In this document: positions 1,147 through 48,878 of the stretch, piece after piece
How the letters are laid out: every line of letters begins with the position of its first letter
How positions within the stretch are numbered: position 1 is the first letter of the stretch
Assembly: GCA_963845895.1 (NCBI GenBank)
Contig: CAWJTN010000001.1
Span: 747,063-811,062 of the forward strand
Origin: Candidatus Roizmanbacteria bacterium
GTDB lineage: Bacteria > Patescibacteriota > Microgenomatia > UBA1406 > GWC2-37-13
Direction of reading: 5' to 3'
Length of the DNA: 64,000 nt
Made by a program: the position numbers and the translations under genes
Notes under the pieces: generated by a model
What the model was told of the DNA's origin: nothing
Databases searched by the model: none
Seen by the model: only the letters and a program-made list of their open reading frames with translations

Positions 1147-3249
1147 ATGGTCGGGTTTTTATATGAAGAAAAAATGAATATAAAGAAAATAAGCATAGTA
1201 ATTCCTACACTAAATAATCGTGTGCAAATCAATGAGTTGTCTCACGGGTTAAATACCGTGCTGAATGGAGCCGGAATAGACCATAAGATTACCTGTTTTG
1301 ACAGAGGATCTACTGATGGAACGGTTGAATATCTTTTGTCTCTTTCCCGAGAGTTCCCAATTGAAACTGAAAGACTAGTCCCAGGGCAAAAACTTACCAA
1401 TGCACTTGCAAATTATTCAGCCATAAGCGAAACAGATTACATTGTAATAATAGACCCGGATTACTCATCAGCTGCCATAGTCTGTAATGAGCTTCTTGGA
1501 AACATAACTGAACAAGACGTTCTGTCCCCATCTTTTTTTAAAAATGGTACTACGCAACATCTAAATCCCGGTGTGACAATAATAAAACCGAGGGTTCTTA
1601 CTCATCTACTGCAAGCTAGTAATCATAAAGAGCAAATATTACAATGGAGTCTTATTCAGCATGCCAAGTATTTAGGCTACAATGTGGCTCATCAAGCTAC
1701 CAGTGAGATTGCTCCTTTTAAGAAAGTCTCTTGGTTAACAATGCTATGGCCAAAGATAAAATTAGCATTTACTGATTTCCCCCCTTATCATCTACCTCCG
1801 GAAAACAAAGAGACTATGAATTGGGCTGGGATTCACTACCATAAGGCTCGTTTTATTACCCATACGACTATCCGCAGTCAACACAGTGCACTCACTACTC
1901 TTACAAGTTCTCAAAAGCTTATCCTTTTTAGTTTCGGAGTTATTTTATTAGCTAGCTTTATACTTAATTGGCATTTAACACTACTTTTTTCATTTTCATC
2001 AATTGTCCTTCTCTATTTTTTAGATTTATTATTTAATGTTTTTATTATCTTTCGCAGTCTTTTTATCAATCCGGAAATTGTAATAACGGACGAAGACATC
2101 CAAGGCTTGGAAGAGGAAAAACTGCCAGTTATTACCATCCTCTGTCCTCTGTATAAAGAAGAATCTATTCTTCCACAATTTATTGAGGCTATGTCCTCGT
2201 TTGATTATCCAAAAGAAAAACTTCAGGTACTCCTTCTCTTGGAAGAAGATGACAAAGGAACAATTGATGTAGCAAATAAAATAGCCCCGCCATTTATCCA
2301 AACCTTGCTTGTTCCTAACTCGTTTCCAAGAACCAAACCCAAAGCTCTCAATTGGGGTCTAGGTCATGCAAAAGGGGAATATATTGTTATATATGATGCC
2401 GAGGATATACCTGAGAAAGATCAATTAAAAAAAGCGGTTATTGCTTTCAACAGGGTAGGGAACGATGTCTTCTGTATGCAGGCAAAACTTAACTTTTATA
2501 ATCCCAAACAGAATTTACTTACCCGTCTATTTACAGCCGAATATTCACTTTGGTTTGACCTGATCCTTACTGGTCTATATTCCATATCAGCACCCATTCC
2601 CCTTGGGGGCACATCCAACTTCTTTAGAACAAAAGACATTATTAAAGTAGAGGGCTGGGATGCCTTTAATGTTTGCGAGGACTGCGATCTAGGTCTTCGG
2701 CTGTACAAGCGGGGAAACAAAACGGCGCTTTTTAACAGTACAACCTTCGAGGAAGCAAATAGTAATTTAAACAGTTGGATAAAACAACGCTCTCACTGGA
2801 TAAAAGGTTATATTCAAGGTTTTTTTGTTCATATCCGTTCACCGAGAGGATTTACGCGCTCTATCCGAGAACCCCATTTTCTCACTTTTTTATTAGTGGT
2901 AGGAGGAAAAACACTTTCCGTCTTTATCAATCCTTTTCTGTGGATTATCACCATATCGTATTTTCTATTCCGGCCATATATTGGTCATTTGATTGAATCG
3001 TTTTACCCTGCCCCTATTTTTTATCTGGGATTATTTACCTTGATGGTCGGCAATTTAATCTATCTTTACAACTACATGCTCGGTTGTGCCAAGAGGGGGT
3101 ATTGGAACCTTGTGGAACTGGGTTTTCTTGTACCCTTTTACTGGTTATTGATGAGTTTCGCTGCCTGGAAAGCGCTCTACCAAATATTGGTAAAACCATA
3201 TTATTGGGAAAAAACGCCTCATGGATTACATCTTAGTCAGAATGTATAA
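1147..3249 (+). CDS. Two-domain family-2 glycosyltransferase, membrane-embedded processive-synthase type
   Basis: The N-terminal GT2 domain has ISIVIPTLNN..DRGSTDGT. TM helices follow, then a second GT2 domain (ITILCPLYKEE, YDAED) and KQRSHWIKG at the Q(Q/R)xRW position, then C-terminal TM helices. The start could instead be ATG 1174 (MNIKKISIVIPT). Confidence 0.85.
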   Translation: MVGFLYEEKMNIKKISIVIPTLNNRVQINELSHGLNTVLNGAGIDHKITCFDRGSTDGTVEYLLSLSREFPIETERLVPGQKLTNALANYSAISETDYIVIIDPDYSSAAIVCNELLGNITEQDVLSPSFFKNGTTQHLNPGVTIIKPRVLTHLLQASNHKEQILQWSLIQHAKYLGYNVAHQATSEIAPFKKVSWLTMLWPKIKLAFTDFPPYHLPPENKETMNWAGIHYHKARFITHTTIRSQHSALTTLTSSQKLILFSFGVILLASFILNWHLTLLFSFSSIVLLYFLDLLFNVFIIFRSLFINPEIVITDEDIQGLEEEKLPVITILCPLYKEESILPQFIEAMSSFDYPKEKLQVLLLLEEDDKGTIDVANKIAPPFIQTLLVPNSFPRTKPKALNWGLGHAKGEYIVIYDAEDIPEKDQLKKAVIAFNRVGNDVFCMQAKLNFYNPKQNLLTRLFTAEYSLWFDLILTGLYSISAPIPLGGTSNFFRTKDIIKVEGWDAFNVCEDCDLGLRLYKRGNKTALFNSTTFEEANSNLNSWIKQRSHWIKGYIQGFFVHIRSPRGFTRSIREPHFLTFLLVVGGKTLSVFINPFLWIITISYFLFRPYIGHLIESFYPAPIFYLGLFTLMVGNLIYLYNYMLGCAKRGYWNLVELGFLVPFYWLLMSFAAWKALYQILVKPYYWEKTPHGLHLSQNV

Positions 3250-3251
3250 GT

Positions 3252-5027
3252 ATGAAAAAATTTAATTCTTTCTTAGATAGACGATTGATTGTACTGATTA
3301 CTTCCACAGCGTTAAGTCTATTTATGGGAATGTTCATTTTTTATCATTCTCAAAACACCAATCTTCTCTACGGTGACGGAAAGAGCCGTCTTCTGATCGC
3401 TAGAAGGGTATTTGACTCGATGACGCCTGGGTTTACCCAATTGGGTGGCGTATGGCCCCCCTTCCCCCAGTTATTGTTTTTACCCACTGCATGGAACGAC
3501 ACCCTTTTTTATTCTGGAATATCGGGATTCATAAGCTCTTTAATCTTTGGAGTTATAGCTGTATGTTTTTTAGCAAAGCTCGTCTTCGGAATGACCAAGT
3601 CCAAAATTGCAGTAATTGCCTCTATTACAGCATTTTTACTTAACCCCTCTCTCCTTTATATGGTGACAACCCCAATGACAGAGCTAGTTTATATTGGATT
3701 ATTAATTACAACTGCGTACTACATATGGAAATGGTCAGTAACTGAGAAATTTTTGTATTTACCACTTGCAGGAATTTCTGTTGTTGCGGCAAGCCTGACA
3801 AGATACGATGGCTGGTTTCTGGCGGTGTTCTCATCTTTGATAATTGTGCTTACAACGTTGTTCAAACACAAACCTTTGTCCGAAATAAAAGGATCATTTA
3901 TTCTTTTTGCTACTGTAGCCTTTTCAGGCGTAGTAGGATGGCTTGTTTACAACCTCCTGATTTATGGAAATTTGTTTCGTTTTGCTTTTGGGGAAGGTTC
4001 AGCTGCTAGCCAGGCAGTGGGTGGTATTTCTGTAAGTTTAAGCAAAGGACATATCGTTTACTCTACTCTTGAATATTTGTCGGCGGCAAATCTAAATGTT
4101 GGTATTATCTCTCTGCTAATTATCCTAACCGCCTTACTGCTGATTATCTCTGTACGGAAATTTAGACTTTTAATACCCTTTATGATTTTAAGTACCCCAT
4201 TTTTGTTTAATATAACTTCACTTTTTATTGGACAATCAGAATTACTTACTAAAAATTTACCTCCGTTCAGCTTATTTAATACAAGATTCGGACTCCCTGT
4301 TATTCCCCTCGTAGCTTTGAGCTATGGAATACTAATTGGATTACTGCGCCGTTTCAAATATCTAGTTATTCTCATTTTTCTTATCGCACTATTGCAGTTT
4401 TCCCTCTTACTACAAAGTACTCCAATCGTTCTCAAAGAGGCTATTATTGGTGAGTCTTCCCCTAAATCACTAGAACGACAAAAACTTTCATTATGGCTTA
4501 AAGGCAACCCCGTAGGTGGCTTAACCATGATCAGTGGTTTGGAGAATGATGTACTTATATTTGACGCTCAACTACCCTTAAAAAGGGTGATTTATGAAGG
4601 AAGCGGAAAATACTGGAAAATGGCTGAAAATAACCCTAGTTCAATAGCGGAAAGAATAATAGTTTCCCCTGAAGATCGGGATTCTATTTGGAAAATGAGT
4701 CAGGAAAATAAGAACTTTTTCAATAGTTATACACTTGTATCCTCAGGAGAATCTTTCCGTGTATATGACCTAACGAAGAACAATAAACTGGAAGCGGTGC
4801 AATCTGTTCCGACTGTGGAGACTGTAGAAAAACCTCCAGTGGTAATACCACCAGTGGAAACATCTTGTGACTATACGATTCAGATAGGAGACTCGCTTTG
4901 GAGAATAGCAAAAAACAAACTTGGAAAAGGAAGTTACTTTACAAAAATTATTAAACTTAATAAGGATACTTACTTTGATTTACCCACTATTCACCCGGGC
5001 AAAAAAATAATAATCCCTTGCACTTAA
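3252..5027 (+). CDS. Polytopic membrane protein (GT-C-like) with C-terminal LysM domain
   Basis: More than 10 hydrophobic helices. The C-terminal YTIQIGDSLWRIAKNKLGKGSYFTKIIKLNKD..IHPGKKIIIP is LysM-like. It lies 2 nt after the GT2 stop. Confidence 0.7.
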   Translation: MKKFNSFLDRRLIVLITSTALSLFMGMFIFYHSQNTNLLYGDGKSRLLIARRVFDSMTPGFTQLGGVWPPFPQLLFLPTAWNDTLFYSGISGFISSLIFGVIAVCFLAKLVFGMTKSKIAVIASITAFLLNPSLLYMVTTPMTELVYIGLLITTAYYIWKWSVTEKFLYLPLAGISVVAASLTRYDGWFLAVFSSLIIVLTTLFKHKPLSEIKGSFILFATVAFSGVVGWLVYNLLIYGNLFRFAFGEGSAASQAVGGISVSLSKGHIVYSTLEYLSAANLNVGIISLLIILTALLLIISVRKFRLLIPFMILSTPFLFNITSLFIGQSELLTKNLPPFSLFNTRFGLPVIPLVALSYGILIGLLRRFKYLVILIFLIALLQFSLLLQSTPIVLKEAIIGESSPKSLERQKLSLWLKGNPVGGLTMISGLENDVLIFDAQLPLKRVIYEGSGKYWKMAENNPSSIAERIIVSPEDRDSIWKMSQENKNFFNSYTLVSSGESFRVYDLTKNNKLEAVQSVPTVETVEKPPVVIPPVETSCDYTIQIGDSLWRIAKNKLGKGSYFTKIIKLNKDTYFDLPTIHPGKKIIIPCT

Positions 5028-5212
5028 TTATTTACGTTTTCCATTCCACACTTCTAATACCCGCTTTTTCGAAAACGGAGTTACCACTAGCGACGGTTCG
5101 GGTACTTTCTCAAGTACATTTTCCGAGTAATTAAATATTCGACTTTGGAAAAGTTTAAACAACTTATCGGCTCCCGCCGGTGGGTTGTTTTTGTATAATA
5201 TGTTAAATCTAT

Positions 5213-5431
5213 ATGAACGATCAACAGATGCTCAAAATACTGGGAAATAATATCAGGAAGATACGGAAAAAAAGAAAAATATCCCAGCAAAGATTTTCTA
5301 AAACTATAGGGATTGACAGAAGTTATTTTGTAAAAATTGAAAATGGGAAAAAGAATCCTACAGTTGGAATGTTAAAAAAGATAGCGAAAGGACTAGATAC
5401 AAGTGTCAATAAGTTGTGTAAAGATATTTAA
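5213..5431 (+). CDS. XRE-family helix-turn-helix regulator
   Basis: LGNNIRKIRKKRKISQQRFSKTIGIDRSYFVKIENGKKNPTVGMLKKIAKGL is a classic HTH_3 pattern. Confidence 0.85.
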   Translation: MNDQQMLKILGNNIRKIRKKRKISQQRFSKTIGIDRSYFVKIENGKKNPTVGMLKKIAKGLDTSVNKLCKDI

Positions 5432-5460
5432 ACAGGTTATTTAAGCTAAAAACCCACATT

Positions 5461-5488
5461 TTGACAGATACTTTAAACTCCATATAAT
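5461..5488 (+). promoter_or_regulatory. Consensus sigma70-type promoter (TTGACA-N16-TATAAT), copy 2 of a duplicated module
   Basis: TTGACA at 5461-5466 and TATAAT at 5483-5488, about 145 nt upstream of the methyltransferase ATG. Confidence 0.55.
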
Positions 5489-5633
5489 GAGAAAGAAAGG
5501 ACAGGACAAATATTTGAGGATTTGCTAGTAAGATTATTGTAAGAAAAATGTTAAAATAGTGCTTATATGGCCGATATAGACGAGGCGCAAATACTTGACG
5601 AGCGCAGAAGAGGGTTAGAAAGCAGAAATAATT

Positions 5634-6677
5634 ATGGCTAGAGAAGCATCAGTCAAAAATCTTACAAATGCGAAACGGGCAAAAAACGATGAGTTTTATA
5701 CCCAATATGGCGATATTCAGAAAGAAATTGAAAAGTATCTTGATTACAACCCTAATACGTTCCGAACTAAAGTTGTGTATTGCAACTGTGACGATCCGTA
5801 TGAGAGCAATTTCTTTCGCTATTTTGTACTTAACTTCAACAAGCTTGGATTAAAACAGCTTATAACCACAAGTTACAAACCTTCGCCTGTAGCCAACACT
5901 CAGCTACAATTGTTTGGCAATGACAAGACACTCTCGAAATCAAAAGGTCGTCCCAAGATAACCGCCAACAAATTTATTATTAACGAAGTGCACGACATAG
6001 ATGACGATGGCGAATTCAACTTGAAGGATGTTGCCAAGCAGTTAAAAGCAAATAAACACAACGAATGGACGCCGCTAGACGGCGACGGCGACTTCCGTAG
6101 CGATGAATGTATAAGTCTGCTTAAACAATCCGATATTGTCATTACGAATCCGCCTTTCAGTTTGTTTCGAGAATATGTTAAGCAACTTTTTGATTATAAA
6201 AAAAAGTTTTTGATTATCGGCAATATTAATTGCATAACTTACAAAGAGGTATTTCAAAAAATTAAAAATAATGAAATTTGGCTTGGTAATGGTATGGGAA
6301 GGTGGATTTCAGGATTTATTGTACCTGAATCCTATGACTTGTATGGGACAGAGGCTCGAATAGATGAAGATGGAAATAGAATTGTTGCTACCAATAATTG
6401 TTTATGGCTTACCAATCTTGACCATGGACGACGCCATCAACCAATACCACTTATGACAATGGAGGAAAATTTGAAATATAGCAGACACAAAGAAATTAAA
6501 GGCAAAAAAGCTTATGAAAAATATGATAATTATGAAGCGATAGAAGTATCTTTTACCGATGCGATTCCAAGTGATTATAAAGGTATAATGGGGGTGCCGA
6601 TTAGTTTTTTGGATAAGTACAATCCTGAACAATTTGAGATATTAGGAATGCGACGATCACAGGATGCAGTATCCTAA
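5634..6677 (+). CDS. N6-adenine DNA methyltransferase (EcoRI-methylase-like family), C-terminus apparently frameshifted
   Basis: Has NDEFYTQ..VVYCNCDDP and the catalytic ITNPPFS (NPPF) motif. The expected C-terminal tail continues in another frame at 6672-6752. Confidence 0.8.
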   Translation: MAREASVKNLTNAKRAKNDEFYTQYGDIQKEIEKYLDYNPNTFRTKVVYCNCDDPYESNFFRYFVLNFNKLGLKQLITTSYKPSPVANTQLQLFGNDKTLSKSKGRPKITANKFIINEVHDIDDDGEFNLKDVAKQLKANKHNEWTPLDGDGDFRSDECISLLKQSDIVITNPPFSLFREYVKQLFDYKKKFLIIGNINCITYKEVFQKIKNNEIWLGNGMGRWISGFIVPESYDLYGTEARIDEDGNRIVATNNCLWLTNLDHGRRHQPIPLMTMEENLKYSRHKEIKGKKAYEKYDNYEAIEVSFTDAIPSDYKGIMGVPISFLDKYNPEQFEILGMRRSQDAVS

Positions 6678-6754
6678 TTGGAGAGGCAGAGGCCCTGATT
6701 TGAATGGAAGGTCTATTTTTAGAAGAGTTATTCTAAGGCATAAGAAAAAATAAT

Positions 6755-7918
6755 ATGAAACCAATTTTAAAAACCAACATTACTGTTAAAGAAATCTGTG
6801 ACGGATTTGTCTATAACGAACTTGAAGGTAAAGGTCTGTTTGGCTTATCTGGTAAATTGACTATTCAACCCGAATATCAGCGTAATTATATCTACGCTGA
6901 AGAAAACAGAGAAGCAGGTGTAATCGAGTCCGTTCTGAAAGAATATCCAATTGGCTTGATTTATTTCAATAAAATTGGCAAAGACACATTCGAAGTTTTA
7001 GATGGGCAACAGCGCATAACTAGTCTCGGACGATTTATCACCAACAAGTTTGCTTTCAAAGATGAAAATGGGATGCCGCAGATTTTTGGCAACATGGCAA
7101 AGGACAAGCAAATAAAGATTCTAGAAACAAAACTGCTAATTTATGAATGTGAAGGAACGGAGAGTCAGATAAAAGAATGGTTCAAAACCATAAATATTGC
7201 AGGCGTTCCACTGAATAATCAGGAACTACTCAATGCTGTATATTCTGGCCAATTCGTAACAAAAGCCAAAGAGGAATTCAGTAATAGCAAAAACGCCAAT
7301 ATCCAAAAATGGAGTGCGTATGTATCAGGTAGTGCCAACAGGCAGGACTTTTTGGAATGTGCTCTGGATTGGGTAAGTAAAAGCAATATTGGTGATTACA
7401 TGAGCAAACACCGCCAAGACAAAAATATAGATGAGTTGAAAAAATATTTCAACACAGTCATTAATTGGGTATCTAGTGTATTTATCGATGTTGAAGCAGA
7501 AATGCGTGGGCTTGAATGGGGACGACTTTATGAGGAGTATCACAAAAAATCATATAACCCCACCAAAGTATCAGCCGAGGTACACAAGTTCTATGGTGAC
7601 TTTTTTGTTAAAGATAAAAAAGGAATTTTTGAATATATTTTGGGAAGTAATAACGACACAAAATTGCTTAATATTCGTATTTTTGATGAACCAACCAAAA
7701 GAGCTGTTTATGAAAAACAGACACGAGAAGCTATAACTAAAAAGAAATCAAATTGTTCACTTTGTGCAGTTGGGCATGACGCTAACAAGAGTAAAATTTG
7801 GAGTTTTGGTGAAATGGACGCTGATCACGTATCAGCTTGGAGTAAAGGTGGTGCAACAGAGGTTAGTAACTGTGAGATGTTATGCAAAAACCACAATCGA
7901 GCAAAAGGTAACCGTTAA
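6755..7918 (+). CDS. DUF262 (ParB/GmrS-like) protein with C-terminal HNH nuclease
   Basis: IQPEYQRNYIY and DGQQRITSL are DUF262 motifs. The C-terminal CSLC..DADHVSAWSKGGATEVSNCEMLCKNHNRAKGN is an HNH motif. Confidence 0.85.
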   Translation: MKPILKTNITVKEICDGFVYNELEGKGLFGLSGKLTIQPEYQRNYIYAEENREAGVIESVLKEYPIGLIYFNKIGKDTFEVLDGQQRITSLGRFITNKFAFKDENGMPQIFGNMAKDKQIKILETKLLIYECEGTESQIKEWFKTINIAGVPLNNQELLNAVYSGQFVTKAKEEFSNSKNANIQKWSAYVSGSANRQDFLECALDWVSKSNIGDYMSKHRQDKNIDELKKYFNTVINWVSSVFIDVEAEMRGLEWGRLYEEYHKKSYNPTKVSAEVHKFYGDFFVKDKKGIFEYILGSNNDTKLLNIRIFDEPTKRAVYEKQTREAITKKKSNCSLCAVGHDANKSKIWSFGEMDADHVSAWSKGGATEVSNCEMLCKNHNRAKGNR

Positions 7919-7975
7919 GTTAATGAGGTTCTTTGAGAGATTTCTTAATATTTCTAATGAATAAAGAAAATAATT

Positions 7976-9232
7976 ATGAAGAAAATTAAAGTATCAATCC
8001 AAGATGAAAATACGTTAGTACTATTAGAAGATGCCCAAAAGGGTGACACAATTGACCTCAAATCAATACACGAAGCGGATATTGATAAAACATCAATCGT
8101 CAACCTTATAAAATCAATCAAAAATGATGAATTTAACGCAGAGTTAGAAGCGGCAAAACGTACCATAGAAAAAGAAAAAGGTCTTGAGGCTGAACTCAAA
8201 GAGAAGGATATTATCAATAGAGCGAAAGAAGCGCTTACAAAAAAAGACCAAGAAATAACAGTCTTAAATACCAAAGTTGAAAACATAGCTAAACAGGTTG
8301 AGTCGGATGTCAAACTTATAGCATTGGAAGAAAAACAATCTTTAGAAGATGGGTATCGACAAAAGTTAACCGATAAGGATGTAGAAATTCAAGAGGTTAA
8401 ACATCAAAAAGAGCTAAGCGAGCAAAAATTTCAAGATCAGATCAAAGCTAGTGAAACTGCTTTAGTATCTCTAAAAGAGATGCGTTCAAGGATGAGCACT
8501 AAGATGATCGGTGAATCATTAGAGGTTCACTGTGAAAACGAGTTTAACAAATTTCGACCATTTGCTTTCCCTAAAGCTCAGTTTGGCAAAGATAACCAAG
8601 TATCAACTTCAGGCTCAAAGGGAGACTACATTTATCGAGAATACGATGATGACGGTAATGAAATCTTATCCATTATGTTTGAAATGAAGAATGAGGACGA
8701 TGAAACGTCAACTAAACATAAAAACAAAGACTTTTTTAAAGAATTAGATAAAGATCGTAAAGAGAAAAACTGCGAATATGCTGTTCTAGTTAGTTTGTTG
8801 GAAAAAGACAATGAATTTTATGATGATATTGTTACGGCGCAGGATTATCCAAATATGTACGCAATAAGACCTCAACATTTTATTACCATCATTGGATTTT
8901 TGCGTCAAGGTAATTTGAAATCACAAGAATTACGACGAACCATCTTAGCTCTTAAAAATCAAAACATCGATGTTACTAACTTTGAAGCTAATATGAGTGC
9001 CTTCAAAGATTCTTTTTCTAGAAATTACAGCTTAGCCGCTGAACAATTTAGTAAAGCTATCGAAGAGATAGATAAAACAATTGATCACCTTAATAAGGTT
9101 AAGGAAAATCTACTAAGATCAGACAACAATTTGAGGATAGCAAACAACAAAGCTTCTGAACTAACAATAAAAAGGTTGACAGCTAATAGTCCGAGTGTTG
9201 CCAAGGCTTTTGAGGAAAACACTAGCCAATAA
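7976..9232 (+). CDS. DUF2130-like coiled-coil protein with PD-(D/E)xK-like core
   Basis: About 170 aa of Glu/Lys-rich coiled coil, then GDYIYREYDDDGNEILSIMFEMKNE..CEYAVLVS (a D..E.K arrangement). The DUF2130 assignment is from memory. Confidence 0.65.
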   Translation: MKKIKVSIQDENTLVLLEDAQKGDTIDLKSIHEADIDKTSIVNLIKSIKNDEFNAELEAAKRTIEKEKGLEAELKEKDIINRAKEALTKKDQEITVLNTKVENIAKQVESDVKLIALEEKQSLEDGYRQKLTDKDVEIQEVKHQKELSEQKFQDQIKASETALVSLKEMRSRMSTKMIGESLEVHCENEFNKFRPFAFPKAQFGKDNQVSTSGSKGDYIYREYDDDGNEILSIMFEMKNEDDETSTKHKNKDFFKELDKDRKEKNCEYAVLVSLLEKDNEFYDDIVTAQDYPNMYAIRPQHFITIIGFLRQGNLKSQELRRTILALKNQNIDVTNFEANMSAFKDSFSRNYSLAAEQFSKAIEEIDKTIDHLNKVKENLLRSDNNLRIANNKASELTIKRLTANSPSVAKAFEENTSQ

Positions 9233-9268
9233 AAATTATGAAGCAAACCTCATTAATGCAAAAATCAT

Positions 9269-9946
9269 TTAGGGTAGGAAGTCTGTCCTAATTTGTTTCG
9301 CTGGGTTTTTGTCCAAAACCAATACGTAAAAGAGTGGTATTTTGAAAAAGTCCAGTATCCAAATGGATTGGAATGTCTGCGGGACATAGTTTACCCAGTA
9401 AGCAAAAGTGTCTTCTTTAATAACATTCCATTTCGGTGTCTTTGCCATCTCATCTAGATTTAATTCGTGCTCCACCTTTGGAGTGATCCATATGATTTTT
9501 ACTATCCAATTTTCGGGCAACGTGCGGTCGAACTCATGGAAAAATAAGCCCTTAATTATCTTGTTAACAACCCTGTTAATTCTTACTTTATCGGTATCGC
9601 TTATGGTGTACATGGTCATTTTTCCTTTATACAATCCCGACTTGGTGTAAGCGTCCACAAGCTTCATCTGGTTAAACATCTGATGACCAAGAGCAGGTGT
9701 TCTTGTGATGGAGCGTGACACTTCACCATCCATGAGCTTTTTCGCTTCGGGAGATCGCTCCATGAGCATAGAAACGTAGAACTGTCTAAAAAAGCCCTCA
9801 TCCTTCTGGAACCCAGCATTACACTCATTACAGGACGGAACCGTAATGAGGGGTTTATCGGGAATACCCTTGAAAAACTGCTTTGCAGGAATATGTTCTC
9901 TCGTGTCTGCAACCCGTCCACAGAATATACAATCGTTAGTAGTCAT
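9269..9946 (-). CDS. Hypothetical protein with N-terminal HNH/zinc-ribbon-like motif
   Basis: CIFCG..TREHIPAKQFF....VPSCNECN is a CxxC..EH..CxxCN arrangement as in HNH_5-type nucleases. The remaining ~170 aa are unassigned. Confidence 0.5.
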   Translation of the reverse strand: MTTNDCIFCGRVADTREHIPAKQFFKGIPDKPLITVPSCNECNAGFQKDEGFFRQFYVSMLMERSPEAKKLMDGEVSRSITRTPALGHQMFNQMKLVDAYTKSGLYKGKMTMYTISDTDKVRINRVVNKIIKGLFFHEFDRTLPENWIVKIIWITPKVEHELNLDEMAKTPKWNVIKEDTFAYWVNYVPQTFQSIWILDFFKIPLFYVLVLDKNPAKQIRTDFLP

Positions 9947-10145
9947 TGGTTTGATTATTTTTTACTTTTTTCAAAACTTGATCCAGCGAATCGGCGTTGA
10001 GCTTATCTTTCAGTGTACCGAGTTTCATTCGCGGGTTAAATTTTTCTAGAACCGGATAGTCTTTTGCTAAATTACCTACCAAAGAATCGCTCCTCTCCTG
10101 TCGGATTCTACCTTTTTCGGTTTTTGTATGCTTTCCTAGCGCCAT
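9936..10145 (-). CDS. Small hypothetical protein (69 aa)
   Basis: ORF in an operon-like position between the DUF3892 and HNH-like genes. It overlaps the downstream gene by 11 nt. No family recognised. Confidence 0.4.
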   Translation of the reverse strand: MALGKHTKTEKGRIRQERSDSLVGNLAKDYPVLEKFNPRMKLGTLKDKLNADSLDQVLKKVKNNQTNDY

Positions 10146-10177
10146 AAATTATTCACCCCCTCAAACTGGCCTAATTT

Positions 10178-10456
10178 TTAAAGTGGGCATTCATTAAGAG
10201 ATAAAAGATTGTTTGGACTATAACCATCGGCTGTGGTTTTTAAATATTTCCTGCCGTCGTGTACGGCAATAACCACATCAACACTCCTGCCATTTACTAA
10301 AACATAGAAGCTATTGGTACCAGACTCGATTTGTCCGATTACTTCATTTTCACTTAGATGCCATCGCCTTCCATTATGTAAACCACCGAGGCTGAGTATC
10401 CGCTCATGAGGATTGTGATGTTCTCTTTTGTTTATACAGCTGACTTCTACATGCAT
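10178..10456 (-). CDS. DUF3892 domain protein
   Basis: ILSLGG..W.LSENEVIGQIESGTNSFYV..NGRSVDVVIAV..GRKYLKTTADGYSPNNLLSLNECP matches my memory of DUF3892. A strong SD (GGGAGGAGGTG) lies upstream. Confidence 0.65.
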   Translation of the reverse strand: MHVEVSCINKREHHNPHERILSLGGLHNGRRWHLSENEVIGQIESGTNSFYVLVNGRSVDVVIAVHDGRKYLKTTADGYSPNNLLSLNECPL

Positions 10457-10458
10457 TT

Positions 10459-11100
10459 TTACACACCTCCTCCCTGCAAATTTAATTCTGGTTTAAAAAC
10501 GCCAATTGCGACTCCATCTATATTGAATGCTTCATTGACTTGATTTTTTTTAAACACGAAGGGTTCATATTTAGGGTTATACGGTTTAAGAATATATTCA
10601 CTTTCCGTTTCTCTGAAAATTTTCACTGTAAATCCTTCGGCGACGCGGGCGACCACAATGTTGCCAGCCTGGGGCGCCTGATTTTCCTCCATAATAATGA
10701 GATCGCCATCGTCAATTTTTGGAACCATACTGTCTCCAACCGCTTTTACCAGATACAATTGTTTTTTAGAATTGCGTCCGAGGATTCGTAACGGAACAGG
10801 GATCATTTGGATGATATGATCCTCAACGATCTCATTAAGTGGTTGTCCGCAGTGTGCATTTCCCAAGAGTGGCAAAAAAGCAATTGCGGAGCTAGCATCA
10901 GGAGAGTTAACTCGACTGACTTTTCCATCATGACCACGAACGATGAAGCCGTCTTGTTCCAATTTCCGGATATGGTACAAGATAGTATTGGCAGCAAGAC
11001 CGAATTCTTCCCCTAAATCGCGAAGAGAGATCGCCTCACCAGATTCAATTGAAATCTTCAGCCTTTCTAGTATTTTCCGTTGAGTATCGTTCAGTGCCAT
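10459..11100 (-). CDS. LexA/CI-like repressor (winged HTH + S24 autopeptidase)
   Basis: The N-terminal wHTH has LRDLGEEFGLAANTILYHIRKLEQDGFI. AHCGQP sits at the usual AAG cleavage position. GDSMVP carries the catalytic Ser and GFTVKIF the catalytic Lys. Confidence 0.85.
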   Translation of the reverse strand: MALNDTQRKILERLKISIESGEAISLRDLGEEFGLAANTILYHIRKLEQDGFIVRGHDGKVSRVNSPDASSAIAFLPLLGNAHCGQPLNEIVEDHIIQMIPVPLRILGRNSKKQLYLVKAVGDSMVPKIDDGDLIIMEENQAPQAGNIVVARVAEGFTVKIFRETESEYILKPYNPKYEPFVFKKNQVNEAFNIDGVAIGVFKPELNLQGGGV

Positions 11101-11174
11101 TAGTACAGATTATCTAACACATGAAGCGAAAAGTCAAATGAATTCTGAAACCCCATAACGAGGTCAACACAAGG

Positions 11175-11414
11175 ATGTTATACTATCCCTATATGCCCAA
11201 CAAGCAAGACGATAAACCCAAAAAAGATCCAATGTCATTTGGCCTAACCGATCTATTGGATAAATTTAAAGGTACATTTGTAGCTTTAAAGGATGATGAA
11301 AGGACAGTAATTTGTACGGGTGATTCCGCAACTTTCGTAAAGAAGAAGGCTTTAGAAATGGGCTATAAAAACCCGATTATAACCTGTTTAGTAGAAGATC
11401 CTCCGAAAACCTAA
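11175..11414 (+). CDS. Small hypothetical protein, divergent from the repressor
   Basis: 79-aa ORF, or 71 aa from ATG 11199, which lies 8 nt after a TATACT box. No confident family. Confidence 0.45.
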   Translation: MLYYPYMPNKQDDKPKKDPMSFGLTDLLDKFKGTFVALKDDERTVICTGDSATFVKKKALEMGYKNPIITCLVEDPPKT

Positions 11415-11696
11415 AATAAACTTTCGAAATAAATAGTATAGATTAATTTCCTAAGTTAACTTCTTTATCCCCCACTTAGTGAGTCGATCGTTAACAATAA
11501 TGATCTTATAGGATTTTCAAAATAACTCTTAATATTCATCTTTGGACTATTGTAACTTGCAGTATCTCTTGATTTATGTAACTAACTAATGTAATATAGC
11601 ATTCATTATAAGTTAGTATTCAAATACTGCCATGCTGGCGGTATTTTTATTTTCTTTTAAGAAAACGATTTTTCTTAAAGAAGGGGGGTGGAATAT

Positions 11697-12047
11697 ATGA
11701 AAAAGATTACTGCGATTAACGTATTTTTAACTCTCGCCTTTTTTGTCTTTGCTGGTCCCGCGTTTGCCGATACCGCCGGAGTTTCTCAAATCCAAACATT
11801 TATCCAAGGCGTCATTGCAGTTTTAGTAACACTCTCTGGTTTAGTTGCCGCCGGATTTTTTGTATTAGGGGGTGTTGGATACATCACGAGTTCTGGCAAT
11901 CCGGAAGCCTTAGATAAATCTAAGAAAACAATTTTCTATTCGGCAATTGGCCTAGCTATAGTTTTGGGAGCATTCGTTCTCACAAACATTGTTAGTCAAC
12001 TTGCAGGGACGGCTTTTGGGACCAGTACTAATGCGGTGGCTCACTAA
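11697..12047 (+). CDS. TrbC/VirB2-like T4SS pilin
   Basis: Signal peptide (..FAGPAFA/DT), then two hydrophobic helices flanking GYITSSGNPEALDKSKKTI. SD AGGGGGGTGG lies 7 nt before ATG 11697 (the ORF track starts at GTG 11688). Confidence 0.7.
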   Translation: MKKITAINVFLTLAFFVFAGPAFADTAGVSQIQTFIQGVIAVLVTLSGLVAAGFFVLGGVGYITSSGNPEALDKSKKTIFYSAIGLAIVLGAFVLTNIVSQLAGTAFGTSTNAVAH

Positions 12048-12072
12048 TTTAATAGATCTGACTTTTTAACAT

Positions 12073-13374
12073 ATGATGAAAAAGTTGGCTTTTAGCTCTT
12101 TGTGGCTATTTCTTCTTTCAATATTCTTCGTTCATCCTGTTTTGGCCGTAACTACTAGCTCCGAAATTACTCAGTACACCAGTGACACCTTAAGTATCTT
12201 AACGCTCATTGCCTCGGCTGCCGCTGTTTTCTTTCTTATTAAAGGTGGATACGGCTATATGAGTTCAACTGGTAAGCCGGAAGCAATCGAACAAGCCAAA
12301 AAGACAATTAAGAATGCCCTGATTGGTCTGGTTATAGTTCTTGCTGCTGGTTTTATTATCTCTTTCTTTAATGGTGCCTTAACTGGCACAACATCCGGAG
12401 GTGGTGCACCACCCGTCTCTCTCTCCCAGATTGAGTCAGTTAAACCCAGTGACGGGTTGACCCAGGTCTTAATCGATGCAGTGTCATCTTTTATGCAAAA
12501 CATCATCCAGTCAGCCACCAAGCCGATTGTGGACGGGATCATTGGGTTTTTAACGACAACCCCAACGCTCTTGGATAACCAGGTAATTTTCAATTTCTGG
12601 TTAGTGATACTTGGTATTACCGATTCCCTGTTTGCGGTCATCGTTGCCCTGTTAGGTCTCCACTTCATGAGTGCCTCCTCCTTGGGCTATGACGACGTGG
12701 AGTTATCGAAACTGTTACCAAAGATCGGACTAGCCTTCCTGGGAGCCAATGTTTCCTTGTTTTTGGCCAACTATGTCATTCTGACTGCTAATGCTTTGGT
12801 TAAAACCGTCATCTCCTCAACAGGGGGACTAAGTGAAGCTTGGGTGGTCAACGCCATTAATCTTCCGGCTCTCGCCTCCGGCAATATGCCCTTAATTACC
12901 CTGATATTTTTAATTTTGTTTCTCATTTTAGCTGTTGTCCTTCTATTTATGTACATTACCCGTTTGATTATGATTTCCCTGGGCGCGGTGTTATCTCCTT
13001 TGATTTTCCTCCTCTCGATCGTACCAAAGTTTTCCGACTTTGCCGAAATTGCCGTCAAAAGCTATTTTGTCACTGTCTTTATTGTTTTCGTCCACGTGGT
13101 TATTATCCAGTTAGCTTCGTCCTACTTAACTTTCCCTGGACAAACCAACAATTCCCTAATCTCAATTGTGGTTGCGATCGGCCTCTTTTTTACTCTTCTT
13201 AAAATCCCTGGACTTCTTATGCAGATGGTTTTTTATAACTCGGCCAATGGTTTTGTTAGGCATATTGGCCATCAGATCATGAATATGATGAGTACCGATA
13301 ATAGCGCAACCGCAAGCAGGGAAGCAGCCAAGAACGCAGCGGTCAAAACTCCCAGAAAGGTGGTCGCCGCATGA
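12073..13374 (+). CDS. Pilin-like N-terminal module fused to a VirB6/TrbL-like polytopic membrane domain
   Basis: Residues ~1-100 repeat the pilin layout, including GYGYMSSTGKPEAIEQAKKTI. At least 6 further TM helices follow. Confidence 0.6.
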   Translation: MMKKLAFSSLWLFLLSIFFVHPVLAVTTSSEITQYTSDTLSILTLIASAAAVFFLIKGGYGYMSSTGKPEAIEQAKKTIKNALIGLVIVLAAGFIISFFNGALTGTTSGGGAPPVSLSQIESVKPSDGLTQVLIDAVSSFMQNIIQSATKPIVDGIIGFLTTTPTLLDNQVIFNFWLVILGITDSLFAVIVALLGLHFMSASSLGYDDVELSKLLPKIGLAFLGANVSLFLANYVILTANALVKTVISSTGGLSEAWVVNAINLPALASGNMPLITLIFLILFLILAVVLLFMYITRLIMISLGAVLSPLIFLLSIVPKFSDFAEIAVKSYFVTVFIVFVHVVIIQLASSYLTFPGQTNNSLISIVVAIGLFFTLLKIPGLLMQMVFYNSANGFVRHIGHQIMNMMSTDNSATASREAAKNAAVKTPRKVVAA

Positions 13375-13814
13375 GAACGACTGTTATTCCCGCCCAGATC
13401 ACAACTGTTGAGGATAAGATTGCCGGAAGCCTTAACTTAACTCAGATTATGATTCTCATGGTTCCTGTTTTTTGGACTACCGCTGTCTATACAATCTTTT
13501 CTCCCGCCATGCATTTAGCCTGGTACAAGATACCTGTAATTTTAATTGTTCTGTTTGCCTGCCTAATCCTCTCCCTTCGCATCAAAGGTAAGGTGCTCGT
13601 TGAGTGGTTACTGGTTCTTGCCAAATACTATGGCCGACCAAAATATTATCTTTTCAACAAAAACGATTCCTATCTTCGTAGCCTTGATCTTCCAGTGTTT
13701 GAGAAAAAAACAATAACGTTTCCAAAATTAAACCCAGTAAGAAATGAAGTTAAAAAGACTAGTTCCTGCATCAAGCATCGCGGATTTTGTCAAATTGGAA
13801 AATATTATTGGTAA
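13371..13814 (+). CDS. PrgI/VirB3-like small membrane protein
   Basis: IPAQITTVEDKIAGSLNLTQIMILMVPVF followed by two TM helices. An ATGA start/stop overlap links it to the upstream gene. Confidence 0.55.
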   Translation: MRTTVIPAQITTVEDKIAGSLNLTQIMILMVPVFWTTAVYTIFSPAMHLAWYKIPVILIVLFACLILSLRIKGKVLVEWLLVLAKYYGRPKYYLFNKNDSYLRSLDLPVFEKKTITFPKLNPVRNEVKKTSSCIKHRGFCQIGKYYW

Positions 13815-13861
13815 TTCCAAATACAGCGTGAGTTTTAAATCAGAAAAGAAAGGAGGCATCA

Positions 13862-14482
13862 ATGTGGCTTTTGAACAGGTCAAGAAATAGCGTAAGTTCC
13901 CGGCGTCAGATCCAGATAAAGGAGGTCAAAGACTCTATTCTTATTCTCCCCAACAACCAATACCGGATTATTCTGGAGACTTCTTCAATCAATTTTGAGT
14001 TGAAAAGTGAGGAGGAACAAGACGTTTTAATAGATTCCTTCCAAAACTTTTTAAATTCGCTACCGTGTCAGCTACAGATAGCAATCAAGGTCCGCGAAGT
14101 TGACATTGACCGGTATCTGGAACAAATCGGACAAACCGCCACTCATGAGAAAGAAACGGTCTATAAGGATCAGATCGTAAACTACTGCCAATTTATTAAA
14201 TCTATGGTCTCAGGCAACAAAATCTTATCACGCCGGTTTTACGTTGTTATTCCTTATCACCATACCGAACGAAAAACCGATTTTCAGCTTATTAAAGAAC
14301 AAATCAACCTCAATAGGGATATCGTCATGCGGGGATTGGAGAAACTAGGGATGAAAGCCAGACAACTGGACAGTTTGGAAATTTTGGATCTTTTCTACAG
14401 TTTCTACAATTCAAGCCAAGTTAAAACCCAGGAGTTGAAGGGCCAAACTATTCAGATGCTTTTACAAAACAACTATGTTTAA
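13862..14482 (+). CDS. VirB4-family ATPase, N-terminal domain encoded as a separate ORF
   Basis: IQIKEVKDSILILPNNQYRIILETSSINFELKSEEEQDVLIDSFQNFLNSL is the usual start of Gram-positive-type VirB4/TraE proteins. SD AAAGGAGG lies 5 nt upstream. Confidence 0.7.
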   Translation: MWLLNRSRNSVSSRRQIQIKEVKDSILILPNNQYRIILETSSINFELKSEEEQDVLIDSFQNFLNSLPCQLQIAIKVREVDIDRYLEQIGQTATHEKETVYKDQIVNYCQFIKSMVSGNKILSRRFYVVIPYHHTERKTDFQLIKEQINLNRDIVMRGLEKLGMKARQLDSLEILDLFYSFYNSSQVKTQELKGQTIQMLLQNNYV

Positions 14483-16304
14483 TTTAGAAAATATTAAAAA
14501 TCGTTTGTATCATAAAAAATCAAAAAAGCGAAGAACTTCCAACAAGGAAGTTCTTAAAAAGCCTTTGCAGTTTAATTATGGTGAACAGGACCAGGTTGAT
14601 ATGATCTCCTACTCCGGCATACACGAAGATGCTTCATATCTTCAAATGGGTGACAAGTTTGTGAGAACTCTTTTTATCTCCGGTTACCCCTATGTCGCCT
14701 CAACCGGCTGGCTTAATATGCTTATAAACTTTAACCATAATGTAGACATTTCCTATCACATCGAGCAAGTGGACCCACTCATGGCTCTCCCTAAACTCAA
14801 TAGGAAAATAACCGAGCTTGAGTCAACCAAACGAACGATGCTTAAAGCTGGCAAAGTCATCGGCTCGGAAATCACTGATCCTCTTGAATCTGCGATGGAG
14901 CTAAAAGACAAAATACAACGAGGACAGGAGAAATTGTTTCAAGTCTCCATTTATATAACCATAACAAGCGATAACCTTACAGACTTAAATAAACTAACTA
15001 CCGTTTTGGAAACCCTCATGTCAACCCGTCTTTTTTACATTAAAACCGCCACTTTTCAACAATTGGAAGCTCTCCAATCGACGTTACCCCGAGCTGAGAA
15101 TCTTCTGGCTCAGAAACGGAATTTAGACAGCTCCTCAGCTGCCTTAACCTTCCCCTTTGTTTCCTCAGAACTGGTCCAGGAATCCGGGATTTTATACGGA
15201 ATCAACAAATCGAATAATTCTTTGGTTATGGTCGACAGATTCAGTTTGAACAATGCCAACAGTATTATTTTCGCCCAATCAGGAAGCGGTAAAAGCTATA
15301 CTGCCAAAGTCGAGATACTTCGCCAGCTCATGCAGGGAACAAAAGTAATCGTAATCGATCCAGAACGGGAATATAAACAATTAACTTCATCAGTCAATGG
15401 TACCTATATCAAACTTTCCGTCAAATCCAAAGAAAAAATCAACCCCTTTGATTTTTCCATCAGTTCCTATTCAGACGAAAACGATTTAGCAGAACACATT
15501 CAGGACTTAACCGAAATTGTCTCTCTTATGGTCGGCGGATTAAGTACCGAGGAGAGAGCGGTCATCGATAAGGCCCTTCTTCAAACCTATAAAGACCATG
15601 GTTGGACGATGTATTACTCCTATACTCCTAAAGTTAATCGAGATCCGAGAGGCCGAAAGTTAAGACCAAAATCTTATCCTTTGCTTAAAGACTTTTACCA
15701 GACCTTAAGGAAGATGAAACAAAAAGACTTGTGTAACCGTTTGGAACGGTTTGTCAAAGGTTCCCTCTCGACTGTTTTTGACTCGCAAACAAATATCGAG
15801 CTCAATAACCGTTTAGTTATCTTTGACATTAAAGATCTAAACGAATCCTTGAGACAAATTATGATGTTAGTTATTGCCAATTTTGTCCATTCGCAGGTCA
15901 AGACCAAACCGCAAAAGCGAATCCTTCTTATTGATGAGGGTTGGATGCTTCTTCAAGAGGAGGAAAGCGCTCGGTTTATCTCAGGGTTAGTCAGACGTGC
16001 CAGAAAATATTATCTCGGAGTCACTATCATTTCCCAACAGGCCAATGATTTCTTAAACCAGGAATATGGACGGGCCATAGCTTCCCAGTCATCACTTCGC
16101 ATCCTAATGAAGCAGGACACAACAACTATTAAAAAAGTCACCCAAGAGTTTAATTTAAGTGAATACGAACAGCATTATTTATTAACCTGTGATCGAGGAG
16201 AAGCCTTGATTATTGCCGATCAAAACCATGTGGCTCTAAAGGTGGTTGCCTCTGAAAAAGAACATCCGCTTTTAACTACCGATCCTAGGGAAATTTACCT
16301 GTAA
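14475..16304 (+). CDS. VirB4-family T4SS ATPase (middle + ATPase domains)
   Basis: Has GDKFVRTLFISGYPYVASTGWL, Walker A AQSGSGKSYT and Walker B ILLIDEGW. An 8-nt overlap (ATGTTTAA) links it to the N-terminal ORF. Confidence 0.85.
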   Translation: MFNLENIKNRLYHKKSKKRRTSNKEVLKKPLQFNYGEQDQVDMISYSGIHEDASYLQMGDKFVRTLFISGYPYVASTGWLNMLINFNHNVDISYHIEQVDPLMALPKLNRKITELESTKRTMLKAGKVIGSEITDPLESAMELKDKIQRGQEKLFQVSIYITITSDNLTDLNKLTTVLETLMSTRLFYIKTATFQQLEALQSTLPRAENLLAQKRNLDSSSAALTFPFVSSELVQESGILYGINKSNNSLVMVDRFSLNNANSIIFAQSGSGKSYTAKVEILRQLMQGTKVIVIDPEREYKQLTSSVNGTYIKLSVKSKEKINPFDFSISSYSDENDLAEHIQDLTEIVSLMVGGLSTEERAVIDKALLQTYKDHGWTMYYSYTPKVNRDPRGRKLRPKSYPLLKDFYQTLRKMKQKDLCNRLERFVKGSLSTVFDSQTNIELNNRLVIFDIKDLNESLRQIMMLVIANFVHSQVKTKPQKRILLIDEGWMLLQEEESARFISGLVRRARKYYLGVTIISQQANDFLNQEYGRAIASQSSLRILMKQDTTTIKKVTQEFNLSEYEQHYLLTCDRGEALIIADQNHVALKVVASEKEHPLLTTDPREIYL

Positions 16305-16311
16305 TACATGA

Positions 16312-16929
16312 ATGAATCCGAAAATTATCATTACTCTGTGGTCCTTCCGGCGTGAGCTGAAGTACGTTTTGTTAGCTTTCCTTATTCTTCTTTCCCTCCC
16401 AGTAATTGCCGTCGTTATCCTCATGAACGCTGGATTTAATGTGGTTTCGGATAAGTTGGTAACTGTTAACACCAATACTCAAAGCGTTCAACTTCGTGAT
16501 CCCAAAGACGGTTCAGTGATCAAAGAAATTAAACCCATTGTTTCCTGGCCCGTAGCCGGGGTTGTAACACTGGAATTCGGACAAATTGACCTACCGTATC
16601 AACCTTTTCATACCGGTATTGATATTGCCAATCCCCAGGGACAAATTGGTGATCCGATTCATCCATTCATGAACGGAACTGTAATTTATGCCGGGGAAAT
16701 CTTCTGGGGGTTTGGGAAACACGTCTTAATTGATAATGGTAACAATATTACGTCCATTTATGCTCATTTGGATAAAATCTATGTTTATCCGGGTGAAAAG
16801 GTAACTATAAACGATGTTATTGGGAAGGAAGGAGAGACCGGTTGGGCGACAGGACCCCATCTTCATTTTCAGATTGATGTTTTTGGGATACCGGTTAATC
16901 CAAGGACGTTTTTAGGAGAAGGAAATTAA
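16312..16929 (+). CDS. M23 (LytM-type) peptidoglycan hydrolase
   Basis: HTGIDIA, SIYAHLDKIYVYPGEKV and GETGWATGPHLHFQI motifs, with an N-terminal TM anchor. Confidence 0.9.
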   Translation: MNPKIIITLWSFRRELKYVLLAFLILLSLPVIAVVILMNAGFNVVSDKLVTVNTNTQSVQLRDPKDGSVIKEIKPIVSWPVAGVVTLEFGQIDLPYQPFHTGIDIANPQGQIGDPIHPFMNGTVIYAGEIFWGFGKHVLIDNGNNITSIYAHLDKIYVYPGEKVTINDVIGKEGETGWATGPHLHFQIDVFGIPVNPRTFLGEGN

Positions 16930-16996
16930 ATTAAAGATCGAAAAATATTTCTGAAAGTTTTTTGGCCAGACGGATCAATTCTGTTATACTATTGGT

Positions 16997-17379: not shown

Positions 17380-17415
17380 AATTTTATTTCCTTACTACTT
17401 GGAGTATATCAAAAT

Positions 17416-24480: not shown

Positions 24481-32295
<7,815 letters not shown>

Positions 32296-48871: not shown

Positions 48872-48878
48872 GAATCTA

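Follow-up and report, generated by a model that had tools for sequence, protein, structure and literature searches.

A conserved type IV secretion cassette with a pilin-VirB6 fusion in a Roizmanbacteria genome and its probable link to a relaxase-bearing mobile element

The type IV secretion systems (T4SSs) closest to the one considered here have been described in Patescibacteria, or candidate phyla radiation (CPR) bacteria. Wang et al. (2023) reported an essential saccharibacterial T4SS that resembles Gram-positive conjugative systems and has essential pilins, without recognizable coupling or relaxase proteins, and suggested a non-DNA function (PMC10633639). Quinonero-Coronel et al. (2025) surveyed 3,035 genomes, found the Patescibacteria VirB4 clade nested in MPF_FATA, and catalogued TrsD, PrgI, VirB6, VirB2-like pilins (by the same two Pfam models as used here), and downstream peptidases (PMC12102498). 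Relaxases were rare in that survey, with 109 in total, 58 of them MOBC, and 15 near virB4 among 2,474 virB4 genes (PMC12102498); a relaxase or type IV coupling protein (T4CP) is usually not found beside the Patescibacteria T4SS. The window analyzed here comprises 64,000 nucleotides of a Candidatus Roizmanbacteria (Microgenomatia) genome (GCA_963845895.1, contig CAWJTN010000001.1, forward-strand positions 747,063 to 811,062) and contains a six-gene T4SS cassette at 11697-16929. Our reading, to which we give a probability of roughly 60%, is that this region is an integrative and conjugative element (ICE), or an integrative and mobilizable element (IME) beside a resident T4SS, and that the cassette is probably not isolated from DNA-processing genes.

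The six open reading frames (ORFs) of the cassette are all on the forward strand and encode, in order, a VirB2-like pilin, a fusion of a pilin with a VirB6-like (TrbL_4) domain, a PrgI/VirB3-like protein, a TrsD-like protein, a VirB4 ATPase, and an M23 peptidase (Table 1). The T4SS call and these gene assignments, with VirB4 in two ORFs, had been made in a preliminary description from the sequence alone and are borne out by Pfam and NCBIfam matches. Starts and stops overlap or nearly abut, as had been noted, with junctions of +25, -4, +47, -8, and +7 nt, whereas the strong Shine-Dalgarno (SD) sequences reported before several genes are clear in three of the six (the first pilin, PrgI-like, and TrsD-like genes) and not in the other three. 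The first pilin exceeds the cut-offs of both T4SS_pilin (PF18895; E, 1.5e-9) and TrbC (PF04956; E, 7.4e-8) and matches the NCBIfam model of the Mbov_0395 pilin-like conjugal transfer protein under its cut-off (E, 7.9e-9). The 433-aa fusion protein likewise matches T4SS_pilin above the cut-off (E, 2.6e-12), and its C-terminal part, which contains at least six hydrophobic segments by hydropathy, has a weak match to TrbL_4 (E, 0.011) over profile positions 4-270 of 276. All 30 orthologues of this protein match T4SS_pilin and 19 of them match TrbL_4 (best E, 1.3e-7). Judged by these profile matches, the VirB6 assignment holds and the pilin-VirB6 fusion is conserved. The sampled Microgenomatia VirB6/TrbL-like protein thus differs, in its N-terminal pilin domain, from what was reported in the 2025 survey, where VirB6 was scarce and a fusion is unmentioned (PMC12102498); in the survey's counts the fusion would have figured as an array's second pilin.

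The 206-aa and 609-aa ORFs tile one VirB4 on the CD1110-family model. The larger one scores 361.7 bits against NCBIfam conju_CD1110 (cut-off, 325) over profile positions 185-734, matches Pfam P-loop_TraG and AAA_10, and has as its sole PDB match the C-terminal domain of Thermoanaerobacter VirB4 (4AG5; E, 2.5e-45), which places the ATPase within the VirB4 families, the point on which the T4SS call had been made to depend. The smaller one matches the CD1110 family at profile positions 11-173 (E, 1e-8), far under the full-length cut-off, and the VirB4 of Mycoplasma ICEs at positions 106-285 (E, 1.4e-9) and TrsD (E, 1.8e-6), both also far under cut-offs; it had no Pfam match in the window scan, and the precomputed annotation gives it a weak Pfam TraC-like match. 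A frameshift artefact as the origin of the two ORFs was ruled out, the gene being split in 75 of the 80 related loci described below and the homologues of the large ORF all being about 595 to 625 aa. The conservation of a separate TrsD-like ORF in so many loci argues that the split is ancestral and not an error. Families of the VirB7/9/10 outer-membrane core were absent from the Pfam matches of all window ORFs of at least 120 aa.

In its MPF_FATA-like VirB4, separate TrsD-like ORF, probable PrgI/VirB3-like protein, and VirB6, the cassette resembles both the T4SSs of the Patescibacteria survey (PMC12102498) and the cluster SEML1_0006-0019 of Ca. Southlakia epibionticum (PMC10633639), with which it also shares tandem VirB2-like pilin genes (PF18895/PF04956), a peptidase directly 3' of virB4, and the lack of VirB7/9/10. 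The Gram-positive-type affinity proposed earlier agrees with both publications, and the VirB2-type pilins, which had been singled out as unusual in such a system, stand on two T4SS_pilin matches above cut-off and are already published for Patescibacteria. On homology, this is the Patescibacteria T4SS in its Microgenomatia form, derived from monoderm MPF_FATA conjugation machinery. The system has been described already, and most of what is set out here is essentially a published observation and interpretation of low novelty.

Monoderm systems of the MPF_FATA type include TrsD/TrsE of pGO1 and the CD1110-family VirB4 of C. difficile, and it is the NCBIfam cut-off of the latter family that the window VirB4 exceeds. 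The plasmid homologues closest to this VirB4 share 31-38% identity with it and all belong to Bacillota or Actinomycetota. The best plasmid match, the Pontibacillus sp. ALD_SL1 megaplasmid NZ_CP062975.1, carries a pair of pilin-like genes followed by genes for a large membrane protein and a small protein, and then a split VirB4 (a TrsD-like ORF and a 621-aa VirB4) and an M23 metallopeptidase. Because the order is the same, pilin-bearing FATA-type cassettes are not confined to the CPR, although in Pontibacillus the protein at the VirB6 position (779 aa) and the M23 protein (1050 aa) are much larger and no pilin-VirB6 fusion was found by BLAST. The Pontibacillus cassette (L163, 351801-361354) is flanked by chemotaxis and flagellar genes on a plasmid typed as non-mobilizable, and neither a relaxase nor a T4CP gene occurs within 9 kb of it. 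Classical FATA systems (pCF10 and pIP501) differ from the window cassette in having adhesins and VirB8-like proteins and no pilin. As for Mycoplasma ICEs, both window pilin domains match the Mbov_0395 model and both VirB4 ORFs match the Mbov_0397 VirB4, all under the equivalog cut-offs; these matches show pilin-like proteins to be present in conjugative elements of the wall-less or monoderm kind. The Mycoplasma elements differ in their VirB4, a single protein of about 890 aa, and in using a DDE transposase rather than a serine recombinase.

The conservation of the cassette was assessed in 80 species-representative genome loci carrying VirB4 at 74-89% identity to that of the window, all of whose ORFs were clustered. 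The cassette was found in every one of the 80 and, gene by gene in the same order, in 59 to 80 of them, far beyond chance: the M23 gene, directly 3' of VirB4, is found in 76 to 80, while 75 loci have the TrsD-like gene, 72 the PrgI-like gene, 70 the pilin-VirB6 fusion, and 59 to 65 the first pilin. Nucleotide homology among otherwise unrelated loci begins at the promoter and runs to the stop codon of the M23 gene. The homologous block measures about 5.3 kb, has 68-89% identity, and is bordered by unrelated flanks, and VirB4 has a median identity of 79% between loci, versus 29-57% for flanking non-T4SS genes. Unrelated flanks between close relatives at this level of nucleotide identity fit mobility better than a fixed chromosomal organelle. 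Several genomes contain two cassettes each, which, like the high conservation of VirB4 relative to its flanks, is a sign of mobility. The VirB4 homologues at 79-90% identity are named by their sources as Gottesmanbacteria, Daviesbacteria, Woykebacteria, Microgenomates, or Patescibacteria.

The left edge of the window contains the evidence for a DNA-processing module. The preliminary description had reported no T4CP, relaxase, or VirB8-like protein anywhere in the 64 kb; this is correct for complete genes, none of which was found by Pfam on all ORFs of at least 120 aa or by tblastn, but bases 1-102 encode the C-terminus of a Replic_Relax protein (PF13814), a family belonging to the MOBC relaxase superfamily (PMC5357655). 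The translation, KSFTDEIEIFLTTKEKILKDQEDTNIWERVEIEA followed by the stop codon, is open from base 1 and, over its full length, matches the very C-terminus of Replic_Relax ORFs in related loci. When the T4CP and Replic_Relax sequences of relatives were searched against the window by tblastn, one kind of match was obtained, bases 1-99 to the Replic_Relax C-terminus, and the stub searched in the same way against 160 loci matched only Replic_Relax C-termini, in more than 25 loci (best E, 1.8e-5). The representative of the Replic_Relax cluster matches the Pfam family at E = 1.8e-13. The convergent neighbor of the stub is a DUF2958 gene, whose longer ORF of 147 aa reaches position 596 and whose homologues match the last 97 residues only. 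The cassette begins 11 kb downstream of these two genes, which are the only parts of the predicted module inside the window; a MOBC relaxase stub at this distance upstream sets the locus apart from the published Patescibacteria T4SSs.

Two protein families recur upstream of the cassette in relatives, one of about 850 aa with TrwB_AAD_bind, TraG-D_C, and T4SS-DNA_transf matches (the VirD4-type T4CP) and one of about 255 aa with Replic_Relax. The genes are usually arranged as serine recombinase (-), T4CP (+), Replic_Relax (+), DUF2958 (-), cassette (+). The T4CP gene is directly 5' of Replic_Relax in all loci with enough sequence (8 of 8 genome loci and 24 of 24 metagenome loci, 32 of 32 together), a large serine recombinase is next after the T4CP in 9 of 9 loci, and the convergent Replic_Relax/DUF2958 pair is present in 36 of the 52 DUF2958-centred metagenome loci with room for it. 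Among 46 VirB4-centred loci with a full upstream flank, Replic_Relax is found within 10 kb in 10 and the T4CP in 9, a linkage that is a lower bound, since the window itself, with a separation of 14 kb, would escape the 10-kb limit. In at least a fifth of the related loci, a T4CP, a MOBC relaxase, and a serine recombinase are encoded within 10 kb, compared with 15 relaxases for 2,474 virB4 genes in the survey, and about three quarters of the VirB4-centred loci have neither T4CP nor relaxase within that distance. The linked loci are scattered over several VirB4 subclades, and pairwise divergence correlates with that of VirB4 for both Replic_Relax (r = 0.86) and DUF2958 (r = 0.90), which together favor a long association of the module with the cassette.

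From this synteny, the relaxase, T4CP, and recombinase genes most likely lie just upstream of base 1 and are predicted to be intact. The relaxase/T4CP pair immediately outside the window that, according to the preliminary description, would make this an ordinary ICE is probably present, the T4CP being predicted rather than seen. The idea that an apparatus without DNA-processing genes serves cell contact or effector delivery is not supported for this locus, given the relaxase stub at the window edge and the T4CP (32/32) and recombinase (9/9) of relatives. Serine recombinases leave no long direct repeats, and a search for att direct repeats marking the element ends was rejected because the recombinase is of this type and one end is outside the window.

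A comparable block is known from streptococci, where IME_Class_8 elements combine a VirD4 coupling protein, a MobC/PF13814 relaxase, and a serine integrase (Coluzzi et al. 2017, PMC5357655). These are the same three families, in one compact block, as are found beside DUF2958 in the relatives of the window. The streptococcal elements have no T4SS of their own and are mobilized in trans, whereas the block in the relatives is often joined directly to a complete T4SS cassette and has DUF2958 as an extra conserved member. The window may represent an ICE with inserted cargo or a mobilizable element next to a resident cassette.

The serious rival to this reading is a resident, non-conjugative T4SS that serves epibiotic life, for example through host contact or the delivery or exchange of proteins or other molecules, in which case the relaxase and DUF2958 genes would belong to an unrelated mobile element or its remnant. 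We consider it the less probable explanation by some way; it draws by analogy on Saccharibacteria rather than Microgenomatia, and a host-interaction role need not exclude conjugation. Transposon sequencing found the homologous cluster of S. epibionticum, including its pilins, to be essential for epibiotic growth, and the cluster has no recognizable relaxase or T4CP (PMC10633639). About 80% of Patescibacteria genomes have VirB4, mostly in class-specific form, and relaxases are rare (PMC12102498). The absence of T4CP and relaxase from the 10-kb surroundings of about three quarters of the VirB4-centred loci points in the same direction, as does the Bacillota megaplasmid, in which the same cassette has no transfer genes within 9 kb. 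A resident T4SS is less easily reconciled with the relaxase stub and DUF2958, whose side and orientation are those seen in tightly linked elements, with the divergence of both genes co-varying with that of VirB4, and with cassette flanks that are unrelated even in close relatives, where the 68-89% nucleotide identity fits mobility better.

Several observations weigh against joining the relaxase module and the cassette of the window in one working element. The relaxase module lies within 3 kb of the first pilin in seven loci, none of which has the PLD nuclease (0/7), whereas in loci without this tight link the nuclease is found downstream on the opposite strand in 27 of 31 (Fisher p = 2.6e-5). 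The window cassette is of the PLD-linked type, which in relatives is never tightly joined to the relaxase module, as a resident T4SS would also predict, and module and cassette may be neighbors rather than one element. Two loci are intermediate like the window: L040 has the relaxase 5.8 kb upstream with PLD present, and L052 has the order cassette, PLD, recombinase, T4CP, relaxase, DUF2958, which is a circular permutation or a tandem arrangement of the usual order and counts as a sign of mobility. DUF2958-centred loci with 10 kb of flank have no cassette nearby, and the nearest DUF2958 relative (96% aa identity) has a different neighbor at the place of the relaxase. The homologous T4SS of Saccharibacteria is essential for epibiotic growth and its separately encoded T4CP is not (PMC10633639; PMC12102498). 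A 45-aa query including the stub matched no protein in a collection of 5.8 billion proteins, and none of the 120 top-ranking T4CP relatives derived from the contig that bears the window's VirB4. Neither absence weighs much, as the index is incomplete for this genome and lacks several genes clearly present in the window, namely, the exact DUF2958 (147/97 aa), methyltransferase, pilin-VirB6 fusion, and PrgI-like sequences. In searches for the sequence upstream of base 1, an exact 39-mer had no match among metagenome contigs, and the glycosyltransferase and VirB4 sequences led only to 5-kb Logan contigs from this strain, which cover window positions ~793-5824 and ~13834-19551. The last point on this side is an apparent frameshift in the PrgI-like gene.

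The 147-aa PrgI-like protein scores 22 bits against Pfam PrgI, below the cut-off of 27, with its two hydrophobic helices, position, and conservation fitting the assignment. Its orthologues are about 170 aa and share a conserved C-terminal tail; in the window this tail is found in the +1 frame, at 13741-13890, and alignment of the DNA places one extra base by an A5 run near 13752-13760, without which the protein would be intact at 172 aa. This insertion could be an assembly error or a real lesion. If real, it might indicate a decaying element, in which the T4SS is non-functional through loss of an intact VirB3/PrgI-like gene and the relaxase module is a remnant, an explanation with which the absence of the stub sequence from all indexed proteins and the lack of a same-contig T4CP among the best matches would also agree. 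Decay is nevertheless improbable. The other five cassette genes are intact, at 63-89% identity to their orthologues, the protein index is demonstrably incomplete for this genome, and the indel falls in a poorly conserved linker beside the A5 homopolymer. Assembly errors are common at homopolymers.

The PLD/Nuc-like nuclease, linked to the cassette in 50 of the 80 loci, also counts in favor of a further explanation, in which the T4SS is a DNA-import machine like archaeal Ced or the ComB T4SS of H. pylori and feeds nucleotides or DNA to a cell presumably unable to make them. The window VirB4 has a weak match to the CedD DNA-translocating ATPase (E, 2.3e-9), and T4SSs of the ABY1 class are co-located with comF, recG, and radA (PMC12102498). 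The CedD score of 36.5 bits is, however, tiny against the 362 bits for conjugative VirB4 families, no competence genes were found in the window by Pfam on ORFs of at least 120 aa, and the PLD protein lacks both a signal peptide and a membrane segment, which makes a role on DNA entering from outside the cell unlikely. We regard import as very unlikely and as the least probable of the explanations considered.

Table 1. Features of the cassette, its leader, and its surroundings (window coordinates)
Feature	Coordinates	Strand	Description
Replic_Relax (PF13814, MOBC relaxase superfamily), 3' end	1..105	+	34 codons (1-102) and stop (103-105); gene starts outside the window
DUF2958 gene	153..446	-	Pfam E 1.9e-12; convergent with the relaxase stub, ~50-nt gap as in relatives
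Variable cargo	1147..11414	.	GT2 glycosyltransferase, LysM protein, EcoRI-like adenine methyltransferase, GmrSD/HNH type IV restriction enzyme, DUF2130, two unknown ORFs, DUF3892, LexA-like S24 repressor, orf79 (Pfam, NCBIfam)
Sigma-70-like promoter	11569..11597	+	TTGATT, 17-nt spacer, TAATAT; read by eye, not listed by the consensus scan
Terminator-like leader hairpin	11622..11656	+	AAATACTGCCA tgc TGGCGGTATTT and T-run; terminator scan; ~50 nt 5' of the pilin start codon
VirB2-like pilin	11697..12047	+	116 aa; N-terminal hydrophobic signal segment and two hydrophobic helices (hydropathy)
Pilin-VirB6/TrbL-like fusion	12073..13374	+	433 aa; pilin domain at residues 29-99, polytopic membrane domain at ~129-408
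PrgI/VirB3-like two-helix membrane protein	13371..13814	+	147 aa; Pfam PrgI E 2.5e-4; apparently frameshifted
TrsD-like protein (VirB4 N-terminal domain as its own ORF)	13862..14482	+	206 aa; NCBIfam TrsD and VirB4 N-terminal matches
VirB4 ATPase, linker and C-terminal motor domain	14475..16304	+	609 aa; Walker A GSGKS, Walker B LLIDE
Membrane-anchored M23 peptidoglycan endopeptidase	16312..16929	+	Pfam Peptidase_M23 E 7.6e-26; HxxxD and HxH motifs; hydrophobic anchor at residues 14-47
XRE-type helix-turn-helix (HTH) gene	16997-17203	+	Pfam HTH_3; near the cassette in 25-45 of 80 loci
orf59	17200-17379	-	Accessory gene often linked to the cassette
Single-HKD PLD/Nuc-like nuclease	17416-17880	-	Pfam PLDc_2; downstream on the opposite strand in 50 of 80 loci

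The cassette is preceded by a promoter whose counterpart in relatives, at a conserved position, reads TTGACT-17-TATAAT. A terminator-like hairpin follows within about 25 nt and is present in roughly 52 to 55 of 63 related leaders, with differing stems. In an alignment of 30 distinct relatives including the window, 85% of cells pair, and compensatory AU/GC changes exceed both controls; there is no Rfam match. The hairpin bears a conserved TTTTTTGTA tail, and many relatives have a second CCTGCC motif 5' of the SD sequence. It is missing in several loci with DUF2958 directly upstream. It may act as an attenuator or insulator or be a small RNA.

The likeliest role of the cassette in this locus is that of mating pore for an ICE, or for a mobilizable element integrated next to a resident T4SS, and its operation can be proposed from homology. 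Apart from the possible PrgI frameshift, the six genes make up a full mating-pair-formation module. A single promoter would drive six translationally coupled genes, with coupling suggested for PrgI and the VirB4 motor by the start/stop overlaps of -4 and -8 nt. The M23 endopeptidase would open the peptidoglycan, and the VirB6/TrbL-like domain of the 433-aa protein would form the membrane channel with the PrgI/VirB3-like protein. VirB4, composed of the TrsD-like N-terminal protein and the 609-aa motor, would power the assembly of an extracellular conduit built from the free VirB2-like pilin and the VirB6-fused pilin domain. With the predicted T4CP, MOBC relaxase, and serine recombinase, the simplest function would be self-transfer of the element, and the restriction-modification, glycosyltransferase, and LexA-like genes between module and cassette would be its cargo.

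Almost none of the cargo genes is linked to the cassette in related loci, and related elements have zero to two other genes at this position, with restriction-modification cargo downstream instead. A role of the LexA-like gene as a conserved cassette regulator was ruled out, since it is linked in only one or two relatives, at 27-29% identity. The cargo includes a defense-like trio at 5634-9232, composed of the EcoRI-type adenine methyltransferase (for which no cognate endonuclease was detected), GmrSD/HNH, and DUF2130. DUF2130 also occurs downstream of the cassette in two relatives (L019 and L067) at 82-83% identity, which indicates that it moves around in these elements. The HTH, orf59, and PLD genes downstream of the cassette recur as an identical trio, at 76-86% identity, in one locus (L003).

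Farther downstream, 4 kb from the cassette, is a gene for a prepilin peptidase (PilD; 21236-22021). A 2604-aa ORF at 24481-32295 consists mostly of collagen triple-helix (G-X-Y) repeats (Pfam Collagen E, 3.6e-173) and accounts for a jump in G+C content to 0.53-0.57 in a region of about 0.35; rRNA as the cause of the high G+C at 25-30 kb was ruled out, as there was no Rfam or tRNA match there and the collagen-repeat gene was found instead. In the whole 64 kb, no tRNA, tmRNA, or Rfam family was found at gathering score. An insertion sequence-type DDE integrase (rve_3/HTH_32) at 41566-42678 (-) lies between a PMT_2 glycosyltransferase gene and glycosyltransferase/sugar-modification genes. At 48843-62302, where the G+C content (0.42-0.46) is above that of the rest of the window, five large secreted-looking proteins combine dockerin-type modules with PQQ/beta-propeller or apiosidase-like glycoside hydrolase and CBM6/35 modules, a dockerin set that is unusual for a small-genome CPR bacterium.

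The missing relaxase of this locus is probably an artefact of where the window starts, and as the finding mostly rediscovers the published Patescibacteria T4SS, its value is one of calibration. The conserved pilin-VirB6(TrbL_4) fusion may explain why VirB6 has been reported as scarce in Microgenomatia. The linkage of relaxase, T4CP, and recombinase to a minority but sizeable share of the cassettes, with divergence that tracks that of VirB4, bears on the question of whether the CPR T4SS is used for conjugation or is a repurposed machine. A broader and distinctly tentative proposal, which we doubt more than we favor, is that the Microgenomatia CPR cassette is a working conjugation pore for a widespread and undescribed ICE/IME family with a serine recombinase, T4CP, MOBC relaxase, and DUF2958, in which the pilin-VirB6 fusion is a class-specific channel subunit that earlier hidden Markov model surveys did not recognize as VirB6. 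If this proposal is true, the published view that the Patescibacteria T4SS was co-opted away from DNA transfer would fail for the Microgenomatia.

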